64,000 bases of DNA from a virus. Taxonomy: Duplodnaviria > Caudoviricetes. Numbering within the stretch: the stretch's first letter is position 1; each line of letters begins with the position of its first letter. The stretch covers positions 64,001 through 128,000 of IMG/VR virus record IMGVR_UViG_2974511964_000001; one strand, given 5' to 3'. Of this stretch, positions 15,402-36,496 are shown one piece after another. The notes below the pieces were generated by a model, which saw only the letters and a program-made list of their open reading frames with translations, searched no databases and was not told the DNA's origin. The translations under genes and the position numbers were made by a program.

Positions 15402-17024
15402 ATGAAAAAATTTGATACCCAAAATAATAAGCGAGCATACATTGATTCATTGATTGAGCAACAAGACTACATTGACCCTAGGTACAATATTCATCTGTTT
15501 TCTAAGGAACGTGGTGTATACTCTGGGGTTGTTCGTTCGTTAGAGTCGCGTTCAGGCCAAGTAGACCGATTTAAGTATTACGGGTTTATTATTAACTTCC
15601 CAGAGACTTACTTTAGTTTAGAAGGTATCTCAGGTAAGAAATTAGCTAATAATGCTAAGAACTTAGGTGATGTATTTAGTAACTCCGAAGCTTTATCAGA
15701 ACAGGGGTTAAATATGCTAGTAGTTGTTGGTAATTGTCTGGCTAATATGGGTGATGAATACAGTGATAACTTAGGACGAGGCATCTATCGAGCAATTAAA
15801 AAATATCCAGCTTCTGAGCAAGTTTATATCAATTTTAAGGAACATACTAATTCTTACTTTATTCGTAGTGTACAATCATTAGATAATGCTAAGCACCGTG
15901 AATATATTAGTGCCAATGGAAATGATGAGGGCTATACTTTTAATCTACGTAAGGCGTGGGGAGTTAGTAAAGGTAACTTCAAGTTGCTAAAGGACATGGG
16001 ATACCGTGACGGTGTAGAGGTGTATGGTGACAGCAACAAGAACTTTAATCAACGGTTATCTTTACTACGATTAGCACGTACCTATGCTCATGAAGTAGAT
16101 GATGAACGAGGTTATCATGACGCCGATAAGTGGTTCAAAAGTTTATACGAGGAGTTCATGGATAATCCTTATAGGACGGTAGACCAGCACGACGATGATT
16201 TCTTCTGGTATAGTGTGCCTAATATTTATCAAGCTTCGATGTTAGCTACTAATGATAAACAAGCGTGGATGCATACGGTTAAATACTTTTATGGTAGCTT
16301 ATACCACCAACAAGCAATTGATAGCGTTAGAGGGGCTGGGCGCTTGTATCTAGACTATGCTGACTTAGTTAAAGATTTCGATAGTTGGGTGCGTTACCCT
16401 CGTTACTTAAAAGTAGCTCATGATATTGCTATTCGTAATACACATGCTTTACACAACTTTGAAGATAATCATGGTATTATCAATAAGTACCACAAGTATA
16501 ACCATCTTGAAGGCACTAATGGCGACTACAGCTTTATGCTAGCCTACGATGCGAAAGAAATTGTTGATGAAGGCCAACAACAAAGTAACTGTGTGGCAGG
16601 GTATGTTGATAGTGTTGCTACTGGTCAATCCTTGATTATGTTCTTACGTAAGGAGCAAGCTAAGTCATGGGTCACTATTGAACTACGTCAGAATAATGAT
16701 AATACGCTGACAATGTGTCAAGTGTTTGAACCATTTAATGCACCTTTGCATGATGAATCAAAACAGGCTTTACACGCATGGGCTAAGTTAAATAATATTA
16801 ATATTGCTAAGAGCATTGGTGGTTGCAGTGATACTACTGGATGGGATAAGCAGTATAAGAAGCAATTCCGTGTAATGCAACCTCTAGCTGATAGCCCTCG
16901 TATGGATAAGGTTAAAAAAGAGATGGCTGAATACCAGAAGCAAGTAGAAGCTAATAAGGACGAAAAGGCTAAGTTAACCAGTAAGTTTGAAGAAGTCAAT
17001 GCAAAAATTAAAAAAGCAGTTTAA
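15402..17024 (+). CDS. PcfJ-like domain protein
   Basis: YPRYLKVAHD...EGQQQSNCVAGY...IMFLRK...TIEL. Confidence 0.75.
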   Translation: MKKFDTQNNKRAYIDSLIEQQDYIDPRYNIHLFSKERGVYSGVVRSLESRSGQVDRFKYYGFIINFPETYFSLEGISGKKLANNAKNLGDVFSNSEALSEQGLNMLVVVGNCLANMGDEYSDNLGRGIYRAIKKYPASEQVYINFKEHTNSYFIRSVQSLDNAKHREYISANGNDEGYTFNLRKAWGVSKGNFKLLKDMGYRDGVEVYGDSNKNFNQRLSLLRLARTYAHEVDDERGYHDADKWFKSLYEEFMDNPYRTVDQHDDDFFWYSVPNIYQASMLATNDKQAWMHTVKYFYGSLYHQQAIDSVRGAGRLYLDYADLVKDFDSWVRYPRYLKVAHDIAIRNTHALHNFEDNHGIINKYHKYNHLEGTNGDYSFMLAYDAKEIVDEGQQQSNCVAGYVDSVATGQSLIMFLRKEQAKSWVTIELRQNNDNTLTMCQVFEPFNAPLHDESKQALHAWAKLNNINIAKSIGGCSDTTGWDKQYKKQFRVMQPLADSPRMDKVKKEMAEYQKQVEANKDEKAKLTSKFEEVNAKIKKAV

Positions 17025-17087
17025 GCTTGCATTATCCAAACTAGTATGTTATGATTAGTTCATCAAATGAAGAGGAGATTTTAAATT

Positions 17088-21710: not shown

Positions 21711-21750
21711 TTGACAAAGCATATCAGAAATTGTATGCTTTTATTATAGA
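21711..21750 (+). promoter_or_regulatory. Hairpin promoter cassette
   Basis: TTGACA-17-TATGCT; AAAGCATA/TATGCTTT arms. Confidence 0.8.
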
Positions 21751-24950: not shown

Positions 24951-25238
24951 ATGAAAATTGATTATGATAATGCTAAACACGATAATGATAAATATAATAC
25001 TGCTAAACAGGATTGGAAAGTAGGGGACATAATCCAAGATGACCTCATTGGCGGCGGTTTGTTTATGGTAGCTGAGGTTCCTATTGATGACTATGTTCTC
25101 TATACGTTGATTAATTTAGAAGAAGGGCGTAGCTTGGTATGTACTAATACTGTTAGTGAACTACAACAAACCTATCAGGAAAAGGGTGATAGGGTTCTTA
25201 ACGGGACTTTTAAGTATATTGGTGGGGATGACAAGTAA
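24951..25238 (+). CDS. Hypothetical protein (DWKxGD beta-domain family)
   Basis: DWKVGDII...LINLEEG; SD GGAGGA. Confidence 0.7.
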   Translation: MKIDYDNAKHDNDKYNTAKQDWKVGDIIQDDLIGGGLFMVAEVPIDDYVLYTLINLEEGRSLVCTNTVSELQQTYQEKGDRVLNGTFKYIGGDDK

Positions 25239-25305
25239 GGAGTAATTTTATGTATAAAATTAGGATGACTGATAAAGCTCATAAAGTGTTTGGTGAGGTT
25301 AAATA

Positions 25306-25494
25306 ATGAGCTGGTTTAATAGAAATAAAAATTGTCCGTATTGTACTCAAACAATGCCTTTTATGAGTAGGGAAGGGATTGAGTTGAGGATTGTATATGG
25401 TAACCAACTATTTACAAGTTATGAAAGTAAACAGATTAATATCACTATTAACTATTGCCCAATGTGTGGTAGAAAGCTGATGGGAGTTAAATAA
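25306..25494 (+). CDS. Small zinc-finger protein
   Basis: CPYC...INYCPMCGRKL. Confidence 0.7.
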   Translation: MSWFNRNKNCPYCTQTMPFMSREGIELRIVYGNQLFTSYESKQINITINYCPMCGRKLMGVK

Positions 25495-25880
25495 TGGAAC
25501 AGCTAGATTTATTTGATACAACAACTAGTACAACTACTAAGAAGGTTACCCGTAAGCGTAAACGTAAGGTTAAGGTAACCACTACCACCACCACTACCAC
25601 TACACAGCCTATCAACCAGCTACTTGTTGATGAAGAGTCAAAGCTAAAAGAACTGTTATCTCAGCCCAAACAATTCGATGCTCTGAGAGGGGCTATAAGC
25701 TGGTTTAAGTCCAAACAGTATACTTGGTACTGTAACACGGTAGAACGTCCTGAGCGAGCTCTGAGGGGTCTTCAAAGCCATTTGAACGTGTCTGACGATA
25801 AATTTTATAAGATGTTGCTTAATGACAAGGTAATGGTAGGGTTAGCAAAAGGAACCTATTTAGTTTATTATAAAAAATGA
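25494..25880 (+). CDS. Hypothetical protein with Thr/Lys-rich N-terminus
   Basis: TTTSTTTKKVTRKRKRKVKVTTTTTTTTT. Confidence 0.7.
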   Translation: MEQLDLFDTTTSTTTKKVTRKRKRKVKVTTTTTTTTTQPINQLLVDEESKLKELLSQPKQFDALRGAISWFKSKQYTWYCNTVERPERALRGLQSHLNVSDDKFYKMLLNDKVMVGLAKGTYLVYYKK

Positions 25881-25881
25881 G

Positions 25882-27205
25882 TTGACAAAGCATATCAGAA
25901 ATGGTATGCTTAATACATAGATTAAATTGAAAAGAGGTGATAAAATGTATAAAGCATATAAAATTAGAATTTACCCTAATAGACAACAAGAAACACAAAT
26001 ATTATTAACATTTGGTCATACTAGATTTGTTTGGAACCAAATGTTAGCCATGCAACTAGAACGCTATAAGAATGGTGGTAAGTTTGTTAATGCTTTTGGT
26101 ATGAACTACCTATTGACGCAGTTAAAAAAGGAGTACTCGTGGCTAACTGAATCTCCTAATCAAAGCTTACAGCAGGTATGCAAAGACTTATCAGATGCTT
26201 TTAAAAATCTGTTTGGACATAGAGCGAATAAACCAAAGTATAAGAGTAGAAAATACCCAAAGCAGAGTTATAGGTGTAACCAGAGGATATCGTTAGTAGA
26301 CGGTCACCATATCAAGCTACCAAAACTTAAGACTGTGTACTACCGTTCTGGTAAAGAAATTAAAGGAAAAATTAAAAGTGTAACTATTCGTAAATCACCA
26401 ACAGGTAAATATTATGCTAGCGTTCTGACTGAAATAGAGATTAAACCTTTAGCGAAAACCAAACAAGAGGTTGGAATTGATATGGGAGTTAAGGATTTAG
26501 CAATTACTAGTGATGGTACTAAATACAGAACTATCCGCTTTGATAAGTTATTAGCTGATAAGAAGCATTATTGGGAAGTACGGTTAGCAAGACGCCAAGC
26601 GTTAGCTAAGAAAGAAATAGCATGGGATAAACACAATAGAGTATTAGAACCCAGAGAGTTATCAGATTTTAGCAACTATATGAAAGCCAAACTAATGGTA
26701 GCTAAGTACAGTGAGAAGATAGCTAATCAAAGGAAAGACTATCTTCATAAGATTAGTACTGAGTTAGTAAACCAGTATGATGTTATCAAGGTTGAAGATT
26801 TGAAAGCTAGCAATATGATGAAAAATCACAAGCTATCACGAGCGATTGCTAATCAATCATGGAGAGAGCTACGTTTGATGTTAGAATACAAGTGTGAGTG
26901 GTATGGTAAAAAATTAGTGGTTGTTAGCCCATACAAAACCAGTCAAATTTGTTCATCATGTGGATATGATGATGGCAAACATACCCTAGATGTTAGAGAA
27001 TGGGTTTGTCCTAATTGTGGAGCTAAGCATGATAGAGATATCAATGCAGCTAAGAACATTCTAAAAGCAGAAGCAAAGTAGAAACACAATGTAAGGCTAG
27101 GGACTAGCCGTGGTAAAATAGTTATAGCCTCTGTATACTGCTAGTTTAGGGTATATAAGTTGTAATGTTCCCAGAAGCTCGTTACTTTAGCAACGAGTAG
27201 TTCAT
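25882..27205 (+). mobile_element. IS200/IS605-family (IS1341-like) tnpB-only element, copy 1
   Basis: Hairpin promoter, tnpB and a ~125-nt conserved 3' end; no tnpA; flanks shared with copy 2. Confidence 0.8.
25945..27081 (+). CDS. tnpB: TnpB RNA-guided nuclease
   Basis: KAYKIRIYPN HTH; RuvC GIDMG, VEDL, HDRDINAAKN; zinc finger CSSC/CPNC. Confidence 0.95.
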   Translation: MYKAYKIRIYPNRQQETQILLTFGHTRFVWNQMLAMQLERYKNGGKFVNAFGMNYLLTQLKKEYSWLTESPNQSLQQVCKDLSDAFKNLFGHRANKPKYKSRKYPKQSYRCNQRISLVDGHHIKLPKLKTVYYRSGKEIKGKIKSVTIRKSPTGKYYASVLTEIEIKPLAKTKQEVGIDMGVKDLAITSDGTKYRTIRFDKLLADKKHYWEVRLARRQALAKKEIAWDKHNRVLEPRELSDFSNYMKAKLMVAKYSEKIANQRKDYLHKISTELVNQYDVIKVEDLKASNMMKNHKLSRAIANQSWRELRLMLEYKCEWYGKKLVVVSPYKTSQICSSCGYDDGKHTLDVREWVCPNCGAKHDRDINAAKNILKAEAK

Positions 27206-27225
27206 CAATCGTGCTATGCAGGAAG
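27082..27225 (+). ncRNA. TnpB omega/reRNA scaffold plus guide (guide ~27206-27225)
   Basis: Conserved with 32677-32803; hairpins GGCTAG/CTAGCC and CTCGTT/AACGAG; ends GTAGTTCAT, then diverges. Confidence 0.75.
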
Positions 27226-27257
27226 CTAATCACATCCGAAGAGAGGGTAGGGTAATT

Positions 27258-27593
27258 ATGCATAATTATGGTAGGACTAATAAATTTAAAACTGTTAAAA
27301 CAAAGAGCCTTAAAAATTACACCGGTATTAATGATGCCACAGGTGAACCAATCTATGTTGGGGATGTCGTTGAAAGAGTGCTTGATATGAGGAATGCATA
27401 CTCAGCAGGAGAAAATAGAGATAAAGAGAAATTCCCGGACTTTGATAAGATGGGTGAACCATTTAAGGTTAAGCGTGATTGCTACTTGTACGGCCATTGG
27501 ATTGCTAAAAGTGTAGCTGATGGCGACAAATTTGGTGTAGATGGGTTCCACTTTGGTAAAGAATTACTAAAAGTAAATGGAGGAAACAAATAA
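27258..27593 (+). CDS. YopX-like protein
   Basis: YTGINDATGEPIYVGDVV. Confidence 0.6.
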   Translation: MHNYGRTNKFKTVKTKSLKNYTGINDATGEPIYVGDVVERVLDMRNAYSAGENRDKEKFPDFDKMGEPFKVKRDCYLYGHWIAKSVADGDKFGVDGFHFGKELLKVNGGNK

Positions 27594-28711
27594 TGAAAGT
27601 AATTAGTACAGATAAAGCGACCTTCCGATTAATGGCCGGGGATGACTTAGTAGTAACAGATAACTTACCAGTAGGAACATACGAAGTGCAATTTTCTATG
27701 CGGCAAGGATATTGGTTAACTAAGCGAGATAATTTTGCTATTGGTAACAAGAAAGTATATGGCAACCAGCCAGAACGGATTAAGAAGATTTTTCATAACT
27801 TTAATAAACGTGATTCTAACTTAGGCGTTATGCTATCAGGAACTAAAGGTATGGGTAAAACTTTGTTCTCTAAGATGGTAGCTCAGGAAGCTATTAAAGA
27901 AGGTATCCCAGTAATTAATGTGGGTAACAATTATCCCGGTATTACTGATTTCTTAGATTCGATTAAGCAGGAAGCATTGGTTTTAATTGATGAATTTGAA
28001 AAACGATTCCCAGCTGATAGTGATGATAGTGATGGTCCTACTCAAAATGACTTCTTAACATTGTTAGATGGGACAGCATCTGCTAAGCATCTCTATGTAG
28101 CAACTGTGAACAATTTGCAACGGATTAATGAGTATCTAATTAACCGTCCGGGTCGTTTCTACTATCATTTTCGATTCAACTATCCTAGCTATGAAGAAGT
28201 TACTGCTTTGTTAAATGATGCAATTTCTGATGAAAACAAGGATAAAATCCCTGAGGTTCAGCGGTTAACCTCTAGTGTTAGCCTAAACTATGATGCTTTG
28301 TTAGCAATTGCTAATGAAATTAACGAAGGCTACGGTGTTAAAGATACTATTAGTGACTTAAACATTCAAGCTGATGGTAATTATGAAAGCTACAAAGCTA
28401 TGGTTACTTTTAAGAATGGTGAAACCTTTACAGTAAAGGCTTCTAATTCTAATGATGAAAGCACCATGTCAGTGTACGGGAAAGGCAATCAAACACCTAG
28501 GGAATGGTCAGCTAAACTCGAATTAGGTAAAGGAACTGTTAAACCTGATGGGACTATTGTATTCCTAAACAATGGTAAGGGTATTAGAAGTGCTAAGTAT
28601 GACGATGTGGGTAATAGCGATGAATGGAACGATACCTCTGAAAACCCGATTACTAAGGTTTTATTAAAGCGAGATGTTAAGGACAGTTATGCATTCAATC
28701 AGTTTTACTAG
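27593..28711 (+). CDS. AAA+ ATPase
   Basis: GTKGMGKT, LIDEFEK, LLDG, NRPGRF. Confidence 0.9.
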   Translation: MKVISTDKATFRLMAGDDLVVTDNLPVGTYEVQFSMRQGYWLTKRDNFAIGNKKVYGNQPERIKKIFHNFNKRDSNLGVMLSGTKGMGKTLFSKMVAQEAIKEGIPVINVGNNYPGITDFLDSIKQEALVLIDEFEKRFPADSDDSDGPTQNDFLTLLDGTASAKHLYVATVNNLQRINEYLINRPGRFYYHFRFNYPSYEEVTALLNDAISDENKDKIPEVQRLTSSVSLNYDALLAIANEINEGYGVKDTISDLNIQADGNYESYKAMVTFKNGETFTVKASNSNDESTMSVYGKGNQTPREWSAKLELGKGTVKPDGTIVFLNNGKGIRSAKYDDVGNSDEWNDTSENPITKVLLKRDVKDSYAFNQFY

Positions 28712-28726
28712 AATTTAAAATAAGTG

Positions 28727-28766
28727 TTGACAAGGGATACCAGAGATGGTATCCTTTTAATATAGA
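28727..28766 (+). promoter_or_regulatory. Hairpin promoter cassette
   Basis: TTGACA-17-TATCCT; GGATACC/GGTATCC arms. Confidence 0.8.
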
Positions 28767-28782
28767 AGGAGGGTATTACTTA

Positions 28783-29529
28783 ATGTTTAAATGGGTTAAG
28801 AAAGTAATGAATATCGGTGACAATAATAGCAATAATGACTTAAATGACAAAGGCTTACAGAGTGATTTAAATGACCTATATATTGTCTATGATAAAGTGA
28901 TTAATGATAAGCGCTTTGGCACTTGGGAAGACTCTTATGACTACCTAGAATCGTATGAGATTAAGAACATTATTTCTGATAGTATGAAGCTTACTAGCAA
29001 TCACCCAGAACTATTATTGCATTTGGGTAAGCTTAATGAGTCTGTATTTCAACTAAAGATGGCTACTACTGCTTTACTAGACATTTATGATAATAAGGAT
29101 AGCCTAGCTAAAGATGTGTATAAGCAACAGAAAAATGATGCAAAAGATGTTATTAACAAATTAGTACAGCGGATTGTAGACATTAATAAGACACTTTCTG
29201 GTATGTATAGAGATGATAACTCGTCTACCATTAGCTTTTTAAAGAAACAGATGGGTATAACTGTTGACAATCCCCAAGAAGAATATGAGAAATTTTATGA
29301 CTGGCTAGTTGTTGAGAAGTATCCCCGTCTGAACCCGGTCATTAAGTATTTATTGTTAGGAGCTAAGAAGGGTTACTATAGTGCAGATACACTAGAATCT
29401 GTCTTGTCAAATAACCCTACAATAGATGACCTAAAGAAAATAGTGGAATATCTTATTAATACTGATAATGACAATGAATTACGTATTAAGCTAAGAGACA
29501 AGGATTATGACGAGATTGTAAATTTTTAA
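28783..29529 (+). CDS. Helical hypothetical protein, N-terminal part of a probably frameshifted gene
   Basis: SD AGGAGG; ends at A AAT TTT TAA with the -1 frame open into the next ORF. Confidence 0.7.
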   Translation: MFKWVKKVMNIGDNNSNNDLNDKGLQSDLNDLYIVYDKVINDKRFGTWEDSYDYLESYEIKNIISDSMKLTSNHPELLLHLGKLNESVFQLKMATTALLDIYDNKDSLAKDVYKQQKNDAKDVINKLVQRIVDINKTLSGMYRDDNSSTISFLKKQMGITVDNPQEEYEKFYDWLVVEKYPRLNPVIKYLLLGAKKGYYSADTLESVLSNNPTIDDLKKIVEYLINTDNDNELRIKLRDKDYDEIVNF

Positions 29530-29600
29530 CTAAGGGAAGACGAGCTATCTTCACTAAGCTTAATGGTACTGGTGTATTCCCTACAGTAACGCCTACCTTA

Positions 29601-30386
29601 GTGCCGGATAGTTTCTTAGCCTTTGACGAGGCTAACAGTTACTTAGATAAACAGCAACGCTCATTAGACTATTTGGACCGTATTCAAAAATTGGCAGTGA
29701 TTACTAAAACTAGTATTGACATTAATAATACAAATGGGTATAATAGAGCAGTATATATTAATAAATTAAATCATCTTAGTAAGCTACCAACAACTAGTAT
29801 TGTGTTTACTAAATCAGCTCTTAAAGAACATGTGGGTAAGCCTATAAGTGTAGCTGAGTTTAAAGACTTAGCTGATGAGCTGAATAGTGATGATGACAGT
29901 ATGCAAGTGTCAGTTGAAAGTCAAGTTGGGCTACTAATAGTAGAACCACAATCCCAAGCAGAAGCTATGCGTAAACTTATTCGTAAATTTTGGGAACAAG
30001 GACATACCATGAATGGCGATTGGAAGGTTCCAATTGTTTCAGGTCAAGATGCTAAGTTTGTTAATATGAACATAAGCATGGGTGAGTCGAAAGGTGTAAC
30101 GAGTGACCAAGCCGAAGACCTTTATGAGCAAGTAAAGAAATTAACTAATGACCCAGAGTATGAAAGACAAATTGACAATAGGATTGAAAAAGCATACGCC
30201 AATAAACTGCGCTCTGATAAGTTTTTAAGAGAAGAAGACTTTACGGTATACCCTGAGTTCATGGATGGCACAAATAAGCAGATAGAGCATGCAGCGCAAC
30301 ACAATATTGATGCTATTAATAGTGTATTTCATACTAATACTGCTAAATTTGTAAATACTAAAGAAGAAAAGGATGAAGAATATTGA
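29601..30386 (+). CDS. Hypothetical protein, C-terminal part of the frameshifted gene; contains a portal-like segment
   Basis: No SD before the GTG; frame is open from 29511. Confidence 0.65.
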   Translation: MPDSFLAFDEANSYLDKQQRSLDYLDRIQKLAVITKTSIDINNTNGYNRAVYINKLNHLSKLPTTSIVFTKSALKEHVGKPISVAEFKDLADELNSDDDSMQVSVESQVGLLIVEPQSQAEAMRKLIRKFWEQGHTMNGDWKVPIVSGQDAKFVNMNISMGESKGVTSDQAEDLYEQVKKLTNDPEYERQIDNRIEKAYANKLRSDKFLREEDFTVYPEFMDGTNKQIEHAAQHNIDAINSVFHTNTAKFVNTKEEKDEEY

Positions 30387-31471
30387 ATAATTTAATTATT
30401 AATGCTGATAACATGGAAAACTCAACAGTTGAGAATAATGAAGTTAGCACCCAAGTAGACAGCTTAGAATTAACTGATGACAGTATTGCTAAGTTTGGCT
30501 TAGATGTCCAACGTGGCGTTGGTGAATTAACTAGTGAAATCACCCAAAGTACCAAGAATAAGAATGCGGGGGAAACTGGTGAAGCAATTACCGCCTTAAT
30601 GAAAATTATTCGTGAAAACGGCAAAGAGGAAGACCAGGGTGGTAACATTATTACCCGTTTGTTCCGCAAAGGTAAGAACTCTGTATATAATATCCAAGCT
30701 AAGAATCAAGCGGTAGACAAATCTATTGATACTATTTCTACCAAACTATCAGATTCCCAGACTGAGCTGAGCCATGACAATGAAACACTAGACAAGATGT
30801 ATGAGCAGAACAAGCAACAGTTTCAAGCCTTAAATGAACTAGTTGATATTGCTCAGGCCAAATTAAATGAGCTAGAATCGTCTATTATTCCAGAGTTAGA
30901 TAACTACATTAAAACGACTAAGGATAGCGAGGATAAAATTAATGAGGCCACAATTAAGCTTAATGAATACCAGAATATGCAGTCAGCTTTGAGCCGTAAA
31001 CTTAATAATCTAATTGCTTCTCGCCAACTAGCGTTATTACGAGCGCCTAAGCTAAAGACTTTAAAGCAAACTAACTTAACAGTCATTGATAACTTACAGA
31101 GCTCAATTAACTTTGCAATTCCACTGTGGAAACAGCAAGCAGCAGATGCTATCCTATCTAGTCGTCAACAGCAGGCTATTGAGGTTCAGAAGTTCATGAC
31201 TGAGCAGACTAATAAGATGATTGTATCTGGGGCCAATAATGTTCGTAAGGCTACTTTAGAGGCTCAAAAGCAGAGCAATGAATCCTTTGTATCGGCATCT
31301 AAATTAACACAAGCTACTGATATCTTGCGAGATACTCTCGTACAAGTGCAAAGCTTACAAAAGCAAGGAGACTCTTTACGCAAACAGGAAGCTAAGGACT
31401 TGCTACAGTCTGGGGAACACATGAAAAGTGTGGCTTTAGACTTGATGAATAATAATAAACTAATTGAATAA
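30383..31471 (+). CDS. TelA/KlaA toxic-anion-resistance family protein
   Basis: IAKFG..VQ, LSHDNETLDKMYEQN, SSINFAIPLWKQQ; long coiled coils. Confidence 0.85.
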   Translation: MNNLIINADNMENSTVENNEVSTQVDSLELTDDSIAKFGLDVQRGVGELTSEITQSTKNKNAGETGEAITALMKIIRENGKEEDQGGNIITRLFRKGKNSVYNIQAKNQAVDKSIDTISTKLSDSQTELSHDNETLDKMYEQNKQQFQALNELVDIAQAKLNELESSIIPELDNYIKTTKDSEDKINEATIKLNEYQNMQSALSRKLNNLIASRQLALLRAPKLKTLKQTNLTVIDNLQSSINFAIPLWKQQAADAILSSRQQQAIEVQKFMTEQTNKMIVSGANNVRKATLEAQKQSNESFVSASKLTQATDILRDTLVQVQSLQKQGDSLRKQEAKDLLQSGEHMKSVALDLMNNNKLIE

Positions 31472-31476
31472 AATAA

Positions 31477-32803
31477 TTGACAAAGCATACCAAAAATGGT
31501 ATGTTTAATACATATATTAAATTGAAAGGAGGTGAAAGTATGTATAAAGCGTATAAAATTAGAATTTACCCTAATAAACAACAAGAAGCACAAATATTAT
31601 TAACTTTTGGACAGACTAGATTTGTTTGGAATAAAATGTTAGATATGCAATTAGAACGATACAGGAATGGTGGTAAGTTTGTTAACGCTTTTAGTATGGA
31701 CTACCTATTGAAGCCACTGAAAAAAGAATATCCGTGGTTAACGGAGGCGCCTGCGCAAAGTCTACAACAGATATGTAAAGACTTATCAGATGCTTTTAAA
31801 AATCTGTTTGAACATAGGGCAGGCAAACCCAAGTATAAGAGCAAAAAGTACCCAAAGCAGAGTTATAGATGCAACCAAAGGATAATGTTAGTAGATGACC
31901 ACCATATCAAGTTACCTAAACTAGGTTCTGTGTACTATCGCTCTGGTAGAGAAATTAAAGGTAAGATTAAAAGCGTAACTATCCGTAAATCTGCTACCAA
32001 TAAATATTATGTTAGTGTCCTAACTGAAATAGAGATAAAACCTCTAGCGAAAATCAAGCAAGAGGTAGGTATTGATATGGGTGTTGCAGATTTAGTAATC
32101 ACTAGTGATGGTAATAAATATAAAACAGTTAGATTTGACAAATTATTAGCTGATAAAAAACACTACTGGGAAGTACGATTGGCTCGTAGAAGGGCTTTAG
32201 CTAAGAAAGAAATAGCTTGGGATAAACACAATAATGTGCTGGAACCGAGAGAGTTATCAGATTTTAGTAACTATATGAAAGCCAAGCTTATGGTAGCTAA
32301 GTATTCTGAGAAGATAGCTAACCAAAGAAAAGACTATCTTCATAAGATTAGTACCGAGCTAGTAAACCAGTATGATGTTATCAAGATTGAAGATTTGAAA
32401 GCTGGTAATATGATGCGGAATCATAAGCTTGCTAGAACAATTGTTAATCAATCATGGAGAGAGCTACGTTTAATGTTAGAATACAAATGTGAATGGTATG
32501 GTAAAGAGCTAGTAATTGTTAATCCATATAAGACCAGTCAAATCTGTTCTGACTGTGGCTATGATGACGGAAAGCATACTCTAGACGTTAGAGAATGGAT
32601 TTGTCCTAATTGTGGTGCTAAGCATGATAGAGACATTAATGCTGCTAAGAACATTTTAAAGGAAGAAGCAAAGTAGAAACACAATGTAAGGCTAGGGACT
32701 AGCCGTGGTAAGATAGTTATGACCTCTGTATATTGCTAGCTTAGGATATATAAGTTGTGATGTTCCCAGAAACTTCTTAAATTTAAAAGGAGAAATAGTC
32801 CAC
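31477..32803 (+). mobile_element. IS200/IS605-family tnpB-only element, copy 2
   Basis: Same architecture and flanks as copy 1. Confidence 0.8.
31540..32676 (+). CDS. tnpB: TnpB RNA-guided nuclease
   Basis: RuvC GIDMG/IEDL/HDRDINAA intact; zinc finger; close paralog of copy 1. Confidence 0.95.
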   Translation: MYKAYKIRIYPNKQQEAQILLTFGQTRFVWNKMLDMQLERYRNGGKFVNAFSMDYLLKPLKKEYPWLTEAPAQSLQQICKDLSDAFKNLFEHRAGKPKYKSKKYPKQSYRCNQRIMLVDDHHIKLPKLGSVYYRSGREIKGKIKSVTIRKSATNKYYVSVLTEIEIKPLAKIKQEVGIDMGVADLVITSDGNKYKTVRFDKLLADKKHYWEVRLARRRALAKKEIAWDKHNNVLEPRELSDFSNYMKAKLMVAKYSEKIANQRKDYLHKISTELVNQYDVIKIEDLKAGNMMRNHKLARTIVNQSWRELRLMLEYKCEWYGKELVIVNPYKTSQICSDCGYDDGKHTLDVREWICPNCGAKHDRDINAAKNILKEEAK

Positions 32804-32823
32804 CAATGTGGTATCCTTTTACC
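32677..32823 (+). ncRNA. TnpB omega/reRNA scaffold plus guide (guide ~32804-32823)
   Basis: Conserved scaffold; terminal hairpin CTTCTT/AAGGAG; ends ATAGTCCAC. Confidence 0.7.
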
Positions 32824-32838
32824 GTGGGGGTGAAGATA

Positions 32839-33312
32839 ATGAATGATGAACCATTAGTTAGAATTGGCGGTAGCCAATCAGACTGGAAGAAGTGGCTAAC
32901 TAAGTCCAAGGGGTTCTATCTGCAAGGGTTTACCACTAAAATTAACCAAGCCACTGACTTAGATGTCAAACAGTCTCCCTTGTACCTTACTCAATTAATC
33001 AGTAGATATCATGACCTAGACCAGAAATTAATTGGCCTTTATCGCTCAGGAGTGGATTCAAGTGTCACTTCGGTTACGTATAATTACTGGGTTGGTATGG
33101 GTAAGATTGTTATAGGCAAAGCTACAGTGCTGATTCAATCACTCAATAATGTTAATACTATTAGTTTCACCTATCAATATCGAGTAACAGCATCCGAGTA
33201 TCGGGCCAAAAACACTAACATTAAGTCCAGACATGCTGGTGGTAATAGTTTGAATGGGCAACGCAAGACTATTGCTAGGTGGCGGGACTATGACAAAGAG
33301 CGCCACAACTAA
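32839..33312 (+). CDS. Conserved hypothetical protein
   Basis: ORF; basic C-terminus with GGN. Confidence 0.7.
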   Translation: MNDEPLVRIGGSQSDWKKWLTKSKGFYLQGFTTKINQATDLDVKQSPLYLTQLISRYHDLDQKLIGLYRSGVDSSVTSVTYNYWVGMGKIVIGKATVLIQSLNNVNTISFTYQYRVTASEYRAKNTNIKSRHAGGNSLNGQRKTIARWRDYDKERHN

Positions 33313-33362
33313 CGTTATATTATTAGAAGAAGAAAACATTACAAGAAAGTAGGAATTTCATC

Positions 33363-33749
33363 ATGGGATATATTCGTAAAGAAGCAGTTGAAAAGGTTCT
33401 TAAGGCACACTCTAATGATAAGGGATTTATGAACTTGTTAGAACTTGTTAGAAAAGGTAAAAATACTAACACGTTACCTCACCCAAGATTCTCTGTTAGA
33501 GACTTAAATAAGGAAATTGTTGACCTAGTAGTAGAATTTGCACAAGACGGTAAATCACTTAATGTATACGAAGAAAGTCGAGGGTCACGTAGTTTCATTT
33601 ACCAGTTTCCCATTGAGGGAATTATTTCCAACAAGACGACAACAGCTACAACAACGACTAAAAAAGTGGTATCAACAACTACTACAACCAAGAAAGTAGT
33701 ACGTAAACGCCGTACAACCACTAAGACAACCACTAAGTCACCTAAATAA
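33363..33749 (+). CDS. Hypothetical protein with Thr/Lys-rich tail
   Basis: TTTATTTTKKVVSTTTTTKKVVRKRRTTT. Confidence 0.75.
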   Translation: MGYIRKEAVEKVLKAHSNDKGFMNLLELVRKGKNTNTLPHPRFSVRDLNKEIVDLVVEFAQDGKSLNVYEESRGSRSFIYQFPIEGIISNKTTTATTTTKKVVSTTTTTKKVVRKRRTTTKTTTKSPK

Positions 33750-36194: not shown

Positions 36195-36483
36195 TAAGTT
36201 TATATTACTCTTTAGAGGGTGGGTGCTGATGAAATTATTGTGGATGGGAGTATTGCTAGTTACAGGGCTATCGTTTTACAACCCTGAGTTTATCCTATTG
36301 TTTTCAGTTATCCTATTTATTGATTGGGTAATGGGTAGTCGTAAGGACTTAATAAAACTAGTGAGATGCTTGAAGAACAAGCAACAGCTATTATCATTGA
36401 AAAGAATTAATGCTGACATTGAGAAAGAAATTAATACCTGCTACCTAAATGTCAGTAGAAATAGTAAGGACAAGTCTAAATAG
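36148..36483 (+). CDS. Membrane protein
   Basis: Two TM helices; start uncertain. Confidence 0.6.
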   Translation: MKITRKMIKRNLPQNSKFILLFRGWVLMKLLWMGVLLVTGLSFYNPEFILLFSVILFIDWVMGSRKDLIKLVRCLKNKQQLLSLKRINADIEKEINTCYLNVSRNSKDKSK

Positions 36484-36496
36484 GACTTGTCTTTTT
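36468..36496 (+). terminator. Intrinsic terminator
   Basis: GACAAGTC/GACTTGTC followed by TTTTT. Confidence 0.85.

Follow-up and report, generated by a model that had tools for sequence, protein, structure and literature searches.

Results

Two tnpB cassettes in a Harbinvirus genome

The DNA analyzed here, referred to as the window, is a stretch of 64,000 nucleotides (nt) that corresponds to bases 64001-128000 of the 137,973-bp, 98% complete virus record IMGVR_UViG_2974511964_000001. It contains two tnpB genes, each with a phage hairpin promoter directly upstream and a structured tail of 124-127 nt, common to both, directly downstream (Table 1). We regard these elements as almost certainly TnpB-omegaRNA cassettes, and in their present form they are not transposons. 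The region matched myophages of Lactobacillus (Lactiplantibacillus) plantarum that belong to the genus Harbinvirus (Herelleviridae), of which Semele, Bacchae, and Lpa804 were 92-95% identical to the window over positions 25000-33500; the source is a lytic Lactiplantibacillus plantarum phage. A scan of metagenomes added two informative Harbinvirus-type contigs, L135 and L137, and the only Harbinvirus genomes that IMG/VR scans with the TnpB and the TelA-like neighbor added were copies of Bacchae and Lpa804.

The true starts of the two genes were identified by BLASTP as ATG 25945 and ATG 31540, in place of the TTG starts given in the list of open reading frames (ORFs), and the same searches returned both 378-residue proteins at 87-88% identity. 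Three Pfam domains, HTH_OrfB_IS605 (PF12323), OrfB_IS605 (PF01385), and Cas12f1-like_TNB (PF07282), were found above their cut-offs in both ORFs, and the NCBIfam model guided_TnpB (NF040570; RNA-guided endonuclease TnpB) scored 355 and 357 bits against a cut-off of 100. The best solved relative was ISDra2 TnpB, which aligned over the full length (E 1.5e-68) and matched D179, E284, and D365 with its motifs GVDVG, (T)EHL, and HDRDENAA. This RuvC triad and two CxxC pairs are present in each protein, and the triad is intact in all four of the Harbinvirus lineages described below. The Y1 transposase TnpA (PF01797) was not found in the 98% complete genome, with control genomes scoring positive. Upstream of each tnpB there are only 65 nt, comprising promoter and ribosome-binding site; the left end of bacterial relatives spans ∼210 nt and carries a hairpin resembling that of the right end, and no second copy of the right-end hairpin motif was detected within the window. 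As judged from their sequences, the units are apparently active, lack both transposase and left end, and stand under phage promoters.

Right ends, omegaRNA scaffolds, and guides

The structured tails were aligned with 22 relatives from three other phages, Companilactobacillus, Sporolactobacillus, and other sources. Their consensus fold contains 33 base pairs, 19 of which show compensatory change across 25 phage and bacterial relatives; these include the terminal stem, where copy 2 has a C-G pair and the other sequences have G-C. No Rfam family matched the region. The scaffold of omegaRNA 1 may start inside the 3' end of the tnpB1 ORF. In multi-copy bacterial relatives the similarity among copies ends exactly after ...GTAGTTCAC, which makes 27205 and 32803 the last positions of the right ends; the similarity of independent copies likewise stops at GTAGTTCAY. 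The predicted guides therefore begin CAATCG... and CAATGT.... The alternative that CAAT belongs to the right end was rejected since bacterial and other phage copies end in TTCAY followed by unrelated bases, and also since Bacchae has CAAT at both of its empty sites.

An earlier account of the window (hereafter the preliminary description) had proposed that both units keep a D-E-D triad, lack tnpA, begin at a hairpin promoter, and share a ∼125-nt scaffold whose terminal stem is preserved by compensatory change, and it had predicted the same two guides; all of these points were borne out. It had further likened both guides to the right half of the hairpin promoter. This is correct for guide 2, which shares 13 nt (TGGTATCCTTTTA) with several promoter copies, as claimed (four other copies carry them). 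It does not extend to guide 1, where the resemblance comes down to the octamer TGCTATGC within coding DNA, found four times in the genome, or about as often as expected by chance. Both guides begin with CAAT and contain TGnTATSC. This likeness was not accepted as proof of guide-directed retargeting, which we keep as a hypothesis, because by a rough estimate tens to hundreds of neighbors within four to five edits of a 14-18-mer are expected per genome.

Hairpin promoters

The motif TTGACA-AAGSATAYC-N6-TGGTATSC occurs eight times in the window, compared with none in shuffled sequences, and 10 times in the genome, with one copy 34-35 nt upstream of each tnpB start. In the tnpB promoters the stem arms pair with each other (AAGCATAYC/GGTATGYTT). 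The arms of the resident-type promoters (AAGGATACC/GGTATCCTT) differ from the tnpB type by a double compensatory change at stem position 4, and a third subtype (AAGAATACC/GGTATTCTT) flanks a distant third tnpB; across the three subtypes this position is occupied by G-C, C-G, or A-T. Because the palindrome lies between the -35 and -10 elements and is not transcribed, a dimeric regulator probably uses it as an operator.

Identical copies of the 30-nt core of promoter 1 stand upstream of an unrelated gene at genome position 63027, of the tnpB cassette of L137, and of other genes in the unrelated siphophage Satyr, and a nearly identical copy is found at window position 21711; the resident promoter in the three empty site-1 alleles has a different sequence. 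Such reuse before unrelated genes and in Satyr indicates a generic promoter/operator module of L. plantarum phages. We conclude that the left promoter is a complete, self-matched unit that travels with the cassette and is not the left half of the resident promoter. The preliminary description had the elements supply a replacement -10 and proposed that joining the left half to each guide rebuilds a plausible empty promoter. Neither proposal survives, as the cassette brings a whole promoter with mutually matched stem halves, and the tnpB left arm would mismatch the right arm at site 2. No terminator-like site was detected between either tnpB and the next gene, which makes transcriptional read-through into the right flank plausible.

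Empty alleles of the two insertion sites

Site 1, occupied by cassette 1 in the window, is empty in Semele, Bacchae, and Lpa804. Homology to these phages breaks off within the resident promoter, directly behind TTGACA, and resumes at CAATCGTGC.... The guide-1 target in the empty phages encodes I-N-R-A-M-Q-E-A at about codon 101 of a YopX-like protein of 224-246 residues, ∼340 nt downstream of the resident promoter, and cassette 1 replaced the promoter body together with ∼340 nt (∼104 codons) of the YopX-like coding sequence. Guide 1 matches the empty alleles of Bacchae at 20 of 20 positions and of Semele at 17 of 20. Immediately upstream of the YopX-like remnant left in the window there is an in-frame stop, and a Shine-Dalgarno sequence is not obvious.

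Site 2 is occupied in the window phage and in Semele and is empty in Bacchae, Lpa804, L135, and L137. The empty allele of Bacchae and L135 joins TTGACAATTAGGATAC to CAATATGGTATCCTTTTAAT, and those of Lpa804 and L137 are variants of the same resident promoter. From these alleles, guide 2 consists of the loop and right arm of the hairpin promoter resident before the next gene; the left arm of that promoter was removed by cassette 2.

Empty sites in related genomes, which the preliminary description had named as the check to be made, were thus found at both loci, and they settle the anatomy. Its proposal that the elements insert into the promoter loop holds for site 2, where the right junction lies in the resident loop (TTGACAATTAGGATAC then CAATATGGTATCC in Bacchae and L135), and fails for site 1, where the empty alleles place the insertion outside the promoter motif and in coding DNA, the very outcome that the preliminary description had named as refuting, here for that copy. 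At neither site was there a clean insertion 3' of a target motif without loss of target DNA. At sites 1-3 the cassettes replace resident DNA, which is not an outcome of single-strand transposition and points to mobility by recombination.

Further sites in related phages

The window phage itself represents the empty allele for two more sites that are occupied in relatives, neither of which is a promoter; each of the four sites is occupied in some and vacant in others of a set of phages with ∼95% identity. Site 3 holds the third tnpB cassette of Semele, in place of which a PcfJ-like gene (15402-17024) is found here. This gene encodes 540 residues, is also present in Bacchae and Lpa804, and is replaced in Semele by the cassette, with the join precisely at the ATG of the gene. 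At 17056-17063 the octamer TAGTTCAT has the sequence of the tnpB right-end terminus; it stands there without a tnpB and ends the resident DNA after the PcfJ-like gene, and Semele has two 16-nt units at this place, each terminating in TAGTTCAT. Site 4 is that of the L137 cassette, which sits inside the terminator corresponding to 36466-36494.

Mosaic flanks of cassette 2

Cassette 2 and its Semele counterpart differ at 4 of ∼1395 nt, and tnpB2 has 99.7% nt identity at the same site. Beyond the shared block (Table 1) there are 28 differences in the next 130 nt on the left and ∼20 in 150 nt on the right, a divergence of ∼20% in the flanking patches. When the four empty sequences were added, variants common to the two occupied alleles were confined to ∼25-40 nt of left flank and 30-50 nt of right flank. 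Farther out, the haplotype of the window is of the Lpa804 type and that of Semele is of the Bacchae type. The switch of haplotype so close to the cassette means that the cassette, with very short flanks, passed from one background to another or that it stayed in place while the surrounding backgrounds were swapped. Short shared tracts of this kind are the trace that nuclease-initiated gene conversion would leave, and ordinary recombination can give the same pattern.

Two patches, 29898-30097 and 31309-31432, diverge by 17-25% from Semele within sequence that is otherwise 97-99% identical; one lies in a 261-codon ORF upstream of telA and the other at the 3' end of the telA-like gene. The presence of two haplotype classes across different phages is indicative of frequent short-tract recombination.

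Searches for guide targets

No guide match with fewer than five mismatches was found in the genome beyond the cassettes' own flanks, which extends to the whole genome the finding of the preliminary description that the window holds no seed-matched target. Scans of IMG/VR with the exact 16-mers gave 20 and 23 matches for the two guides, about the number expected by chance on a rough estimate, and the sole related match was Bacchae. Among 401 Lactobacillaceae genomes, with at most one mismatch allowed, there were 10 and 31 matches compared with 8 and 17 for reversed controls. The single exact match in these genomes has a GC-rich flank that does not resemble a transposon-adjacent motif (TAM), and it diverges after base 16. 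Targeting of the host was therefore rejected, the matches being near the level of the reversed patterns and the exact match not being extended. As no guide match elsewhere exceeds chance, the orthologous empty site is the only plausible target. The preliminary description had also raised the possibility that the elements bind promoters as regulators. This is unlikely, since the RuvC site has been kept and guide 2 departs from the other promoter copies at four of its first five positions, mismatches that also speak against self-targeting.

Target flanks and the predicted TAM

The TnpA-bearing element of the Mooreparkvirus phage Lbab1 is inserted cleanly after TCTAT, the left ends of bacterial relatives start directly after TTTAT, and the targets of two left-end-less Mooreparkvirus copies are preceded by TTTAT and TGTAT. 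The four Harbinvirus targets (sites 1-4) are preceded by GAAAT, GATAC, AGTAT, and AGGAC, respectively, of which only that of site 3 is near TNTAT. All four of these flanks have A at position -2, a pyrimidine at -1, and a base other than C at -3, and all right ends read C-A-Y.

The residues that we take to contact the TAM in ISDra2 TnpB are Y52, S56, K76, F77, Q80, T123, and N124, and the ISDra2 sequence in our alignment agrees with this list at each position. Canonical relatives have S-T at the K76/F77 positions and keep a three-residue loop. In the Harbinvirus and the left-end-less Mooreparkvirus clades, the positions aligned with the presumed contacts are changed and the loop (ISDra2 Q121-T123) is lost. 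These changes make an altered or relaxed TAM possible, as a prediction from four sites and no more.

Origin and selection

The Harbinvirus tnpB copies formed one clade with 100/100 support in a tree that included other phage and bacterial relatives. The copies at sites 1-3 are 82-85% identical in DNA. The four lineages all have exactly 378 codons, and they are separated by dS values of 0.8-1.0, at which silent sites are saturated, with dN/dS ratios of 0.07-0.10. The copies of Mooreparkvirus and Tybeckvirus form clades of their own. In Mooreparkvirus, the sole copy that retains tnpA and a left end is sister to five left-end-less copies; the latter are under phage promoters, each with an empty site in a sister phage. 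In the Tybeckvirus 521B the left-end-less copies have no common upstream region. The simplest history is one entry per phage genus, followed by loss of transposon parts and transposase-free spread to new sites.

Several left-end-less tnpB genes of the Mooreparkvirus phages Lbab1 and Lb338-1 (loci L117-L128) are flanked by direct duplications of 13, 44, or 79 nt. These consist of the resident leader and ribosome-binding site, as if they arose from a single crossover of a circular or copied intermediate. The pair gp92/gp93 of Lbab1 is the only complete insertion sequence (IS) with tnpA among the copies of these two phages.

Neighboring gene and third tnpB

The AAA ATPase gene that adjoins cassette 1 (27593-28711) occupies an unchanged position in cassette-free phages and is therefore not part of the element. 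Kyrkou et al. 2019 (PMC6669764) described the tnpB genes as paralogous transposases, possibly under the control of this ATPase, and did not detect a homologue in L. plantarum; our analysis corrects that annotation.

The distant third tnpB lies outside the window on the minus strand (genome 132700-134700, locus L006) and encodes 374 residues (40% identity). It has a hairpin promoter of the third subtype and a ∼70-nt leader duplicated on both sides, followed by arrays of ∼36-nt repeats spaced by 60-70 nt. The locus looks like a TnpB with CRISPR-like arrays, and similar arrays beside tnpB are reported for the Thermus Lalka phages (PMC11437467). The coordinates of all features in the window are collected in Table 1.

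Table 1. Positions of the cassette components, targets, and promoters in the window
Feature	Position	Strand	Remarks
Cassette 1 hairpin promoter	25882..25910	+	-35 TTGACA; 9-bp inverted repeat AAGCATATC/GGTATGCTT; extended -10 TGgTATGCT
tnpB1	25945..27081	+	378 aa; RuvC D179/E284/D365; two CxxC
omegaRNA 1 scaffold / transposon right end	27082..27205	+	ends ...GAGTAGTTCAT
Guide 1 (CAATCGTGCTATGCAGGAAG)	27206..27225	+	first bases of right flank; YopX-like coding DNA
YopX-like remnant	27216..27593	+	last 125 codons; full 224-246 aa in Semele, Bacchae, Lpa804
Cassette 2 hairpin promoter	31477..31505	+	arms AAGCATACC/GGTATGTTT; -10 TATGTT; in place of left half of resident promoter
tnpB2	31540..32676	+	378 aa; catalytic and zinc-finger residues as in tnpB1
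omegaRNA 2 scaffold / right end	32677..32803	+	ends ...AAATAGTCCAC
Guide 2 (CAATGTGGTATCCTTTTACC)	32804..32823	+	loop and right half of resident promoter of next gene; -10 TATCCT at 32812-32817
Block near-identical to Semele	31433..32853	+	cassette 2, ∼44 nt on left, 50 nt on right; 4 substitutions and 1 indel
Empty target for Semele third tnpB cassette	17048..17063	+	15/16 guide match; 5' flank AGTAT
Empty target for L137 tnpB cassette	36472..36491	+	left arm of intrinsic terminator 36466-36494
Hairpin promoter copies	3777, 21711, 24171, 25882, 28727, 31477	+	
Hairpin promoter copies	58263, 61266	-	

Discussion

Cas12 descends from TnpB, whose natural role has mostly been described as that of a helper keeping IS200/IS605 transposons in place. 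The cassettes studied here most likely persist and spread as genes for RNA-guided homing nucleases and not as transposons, a reading that we hold with moderate confidence on the strength of the sequence comparisons. It retains from the preliminary description the idea of homing against empty alleles of related phages. Each unit would consist of a complete phage hairpin promoter, a ribosome-binding site, tnpB, and an omegaRNA scaffold that was formerly the right end of an IS605-type element. A single ancestor of the IS200/IS605 family would have entered Harbinvirus, lost tnpA and its left end, and diversified into four or more lineages, each specific to one site. The transcript from the phage promoter would cross the right end, such that, after processing, the first 16-20 nt of the right flank serve as the guide. 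In a mixed infection with a cassette-free relative, the TnpB-omegaRNA complex would cut the orthologous empty site, and recombinational repair from the cassette-bearing genome would copy the cassette along with a few tens of flanking bases, a form of intronless, TnpA-independent homing. New sites would be gained rarely, by illegitimate recombination, with the left crossover often in or near a resident promoter and the right join at the right end, sometimes at microhomology; resident DNA could be deleted in the process.

Several results weigh against this reading. The flanks GAAAT and GATAC at sites 1 and 2 do not fit the TNTAT inferred for canonical relatives, and with a strict TAM these two sites would therefore not be cut. 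The surviving empty alleles of site 2 mismatch guide 2 at position 5. Divergent mosaic patches also occur away from tnpB, as at 29898-30097, and general phage recombination could produce the site-2 pattern without any nuclease. The comparison covers only six related genomes or contigs.

In the strongest of the alternatives, the cassettes are passengers shuffled by general phage recombination and promoter repeats and TnpB cutting is irrelevant to their spread at these two sites; the protein may then serve otherwise, for example by damaging competitor genomes without copying or in a guide-independent role. Noncanonical target flanks and mosaic divergence elsewhere in the region are what it expects, as are left junctions at a shared promoter whose 30-nt core is also used by unrelated genes and by another phage family. 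We nonetheless consider it unlikely. Long-term purifying selection on the protein, the catalytic residues, and the scaffold in four lineages calls for a function tied to the RNA, the guides match only empty alleles, and the block shared with Semele extends very little beyond cassette 2 on either side, as for conversion initiated by a break.

A broader version of homing deserves mention as a speculation, to which we would give only a small chance when its parts are taken together. It holds that the TnpB class of lactobacillus Herelleviridae gave up transposition and spreads by RNA-guided homing combined with promoter-anchored or near-cognate ectopic repair, and also that loss of the three-residue TAM-contact loop relaxes the TAM, that a C at right-end position -3 is the sole mark of self (targets reading D-A-Y and right ends C-A-Y), and that the CAAT...TGnTATSC common to the guides records an off-target cut by which one site seeded the other.

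The full model of the preliminary description, in which the elements insert into the promoter loop, keep the left half, supply a new -10, and use promoter-half guides to home into or regulate promoters, is improbable. In its favor, cassette 2 has its right junction inside the loop of a resident hairpin promoter, guide 2 has 13 nt in common with four promoter copies, and the distant third tnpB likewise abuts such a promoter at ACCAAT/CATGG. Against it, the target at site 1 falls in coding DNA, 340 nt away from the promoter, neither site 3 nor site 4 is a promoter, the left half pairs with the cassette's own right half and not with the resident one, and the first five guide positions are mismatched in other promoter copies.

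Transposition in trans, by a Y1 TnpA of the host or of a co-infecting element acting on the retained right-end hairpin and a surrogate left end, is very improbable. The hairpin and the TTCAY terminus are conserved and a complete TnpA plus TnpB element is present in Lbab1, inserted cleanly after TCTAT, but no L. plantarum homologue was found by Kyrkou et al. (PMC6669764). The genome contains neither TnpA nor a left-end hairpin, sites 1-3 show deletions or replacements, and the flanks lack TNTAT. Domesticated repressors that bind DNA beside the cassette without cutting can practically be discounted: TldR genes, according to what Wiegand and colleagues reportedly found in 2024, are likewise transposase-less and under host-type promoters, but here every copy retains an intact RuvC triad and zinc finger, and the only genome match is the flank of the cassette itself, with the right end and not a TAM before it.

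In these phages the nuclease and its RNA have lasted for a long time with no transposase at all, which makes them a natural system for study. Isolated phages that can be cultured provide pairs of occupied and empty alleles (this phage or Semele versus Bacchae or Lpa804), and these pairs make testable the notion of an RNA-guided nuclease as a free-standing homing or gene-drive element among viruses, as well as its target acquisition and its need for a TAM. The cassettes also explain part of the gene-content differences within Harbinvirus, such as the truncated YopX-like gene here and the loss of the PcfJ-like gene in Semele.

The use of the hairpin promoters recalls the PeSL promoter-stem-loop cassettes of T4-type phages that Arbiol and colleagues are said to have described in 2010. 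In both cases a repeated early-type promoter with an inverted repeat bounds accessory-gene cassettes and could be a crossover point; the Harbinvirus case differs in phage family and sequence, and here the cassette encodes a nuclease with a guide aimed at the next module. In protein and RNA the window cassettes resemble the ISDra2 TnpB-omegaRNA complex (PDB 8BF8/8EXA/8H1J), having the same domain order, D-E-D triad, and zinc finger, an omegaRNA scaffold that overlaps the right end, and a guide read from the flank. Unlike ISDra2, they are without tnpA and left end, a phage promoter replaces the left-end promoter, the residues aligned with the presumed TAM contacts differ, and the three-residue loop is missing. 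Closer counterparts are the IS of Lbab1 (gp93 tnpA and gp92 tnpB) and the multi-copy elements of Companilactobacillus and Sporolactobacillus, which have intact TnpB proteins 58-63% identical and the same scaffold and GTAGTTCAY terminus; unlike the window cassettes, these elements have a hairpin left end and are inserted cleanly after TCTAT or TTTAT.

In lifestyle, the cassettes resemble the free-standing homing endonucleases of T-even phages (SegB, SegF, and Mob). In that concept (PMC13565253), too, a nuclease gene lies between conserved phage genes, is present or absent among relatives, has its target in the cassette-free allele, and carries short flanking tracts along. The difference is that recognition here would depend on a guide RNA copied from the flank, and the presence of the insert itself would separate self from non-self. 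Homing by TnpB is established for bacterial IS605 elements (10.1101/2023.03.14.532601, PMC10690162), and IS605 is reported to spread among plasmid copies independently of TnpA (PMC11870625, as described in PMC13565253). The 2026 review (PMC13565253) treats homing between co-infecting phages as a theoretical possibility only, and our literature searches for phage TnpB homing gave no experimental report. The plasmid spread of IS605 (PMC11870625) and the 'transposon non-restorative homing' of the review (PMC13565253) follow the same logic as that proposed for the Harbinvirus cassettes, with TnpB cutting the empty site and repair copying the element; the plasmid system involves a complete IS, whereas the phage cassettes have lost parts of the transposon.

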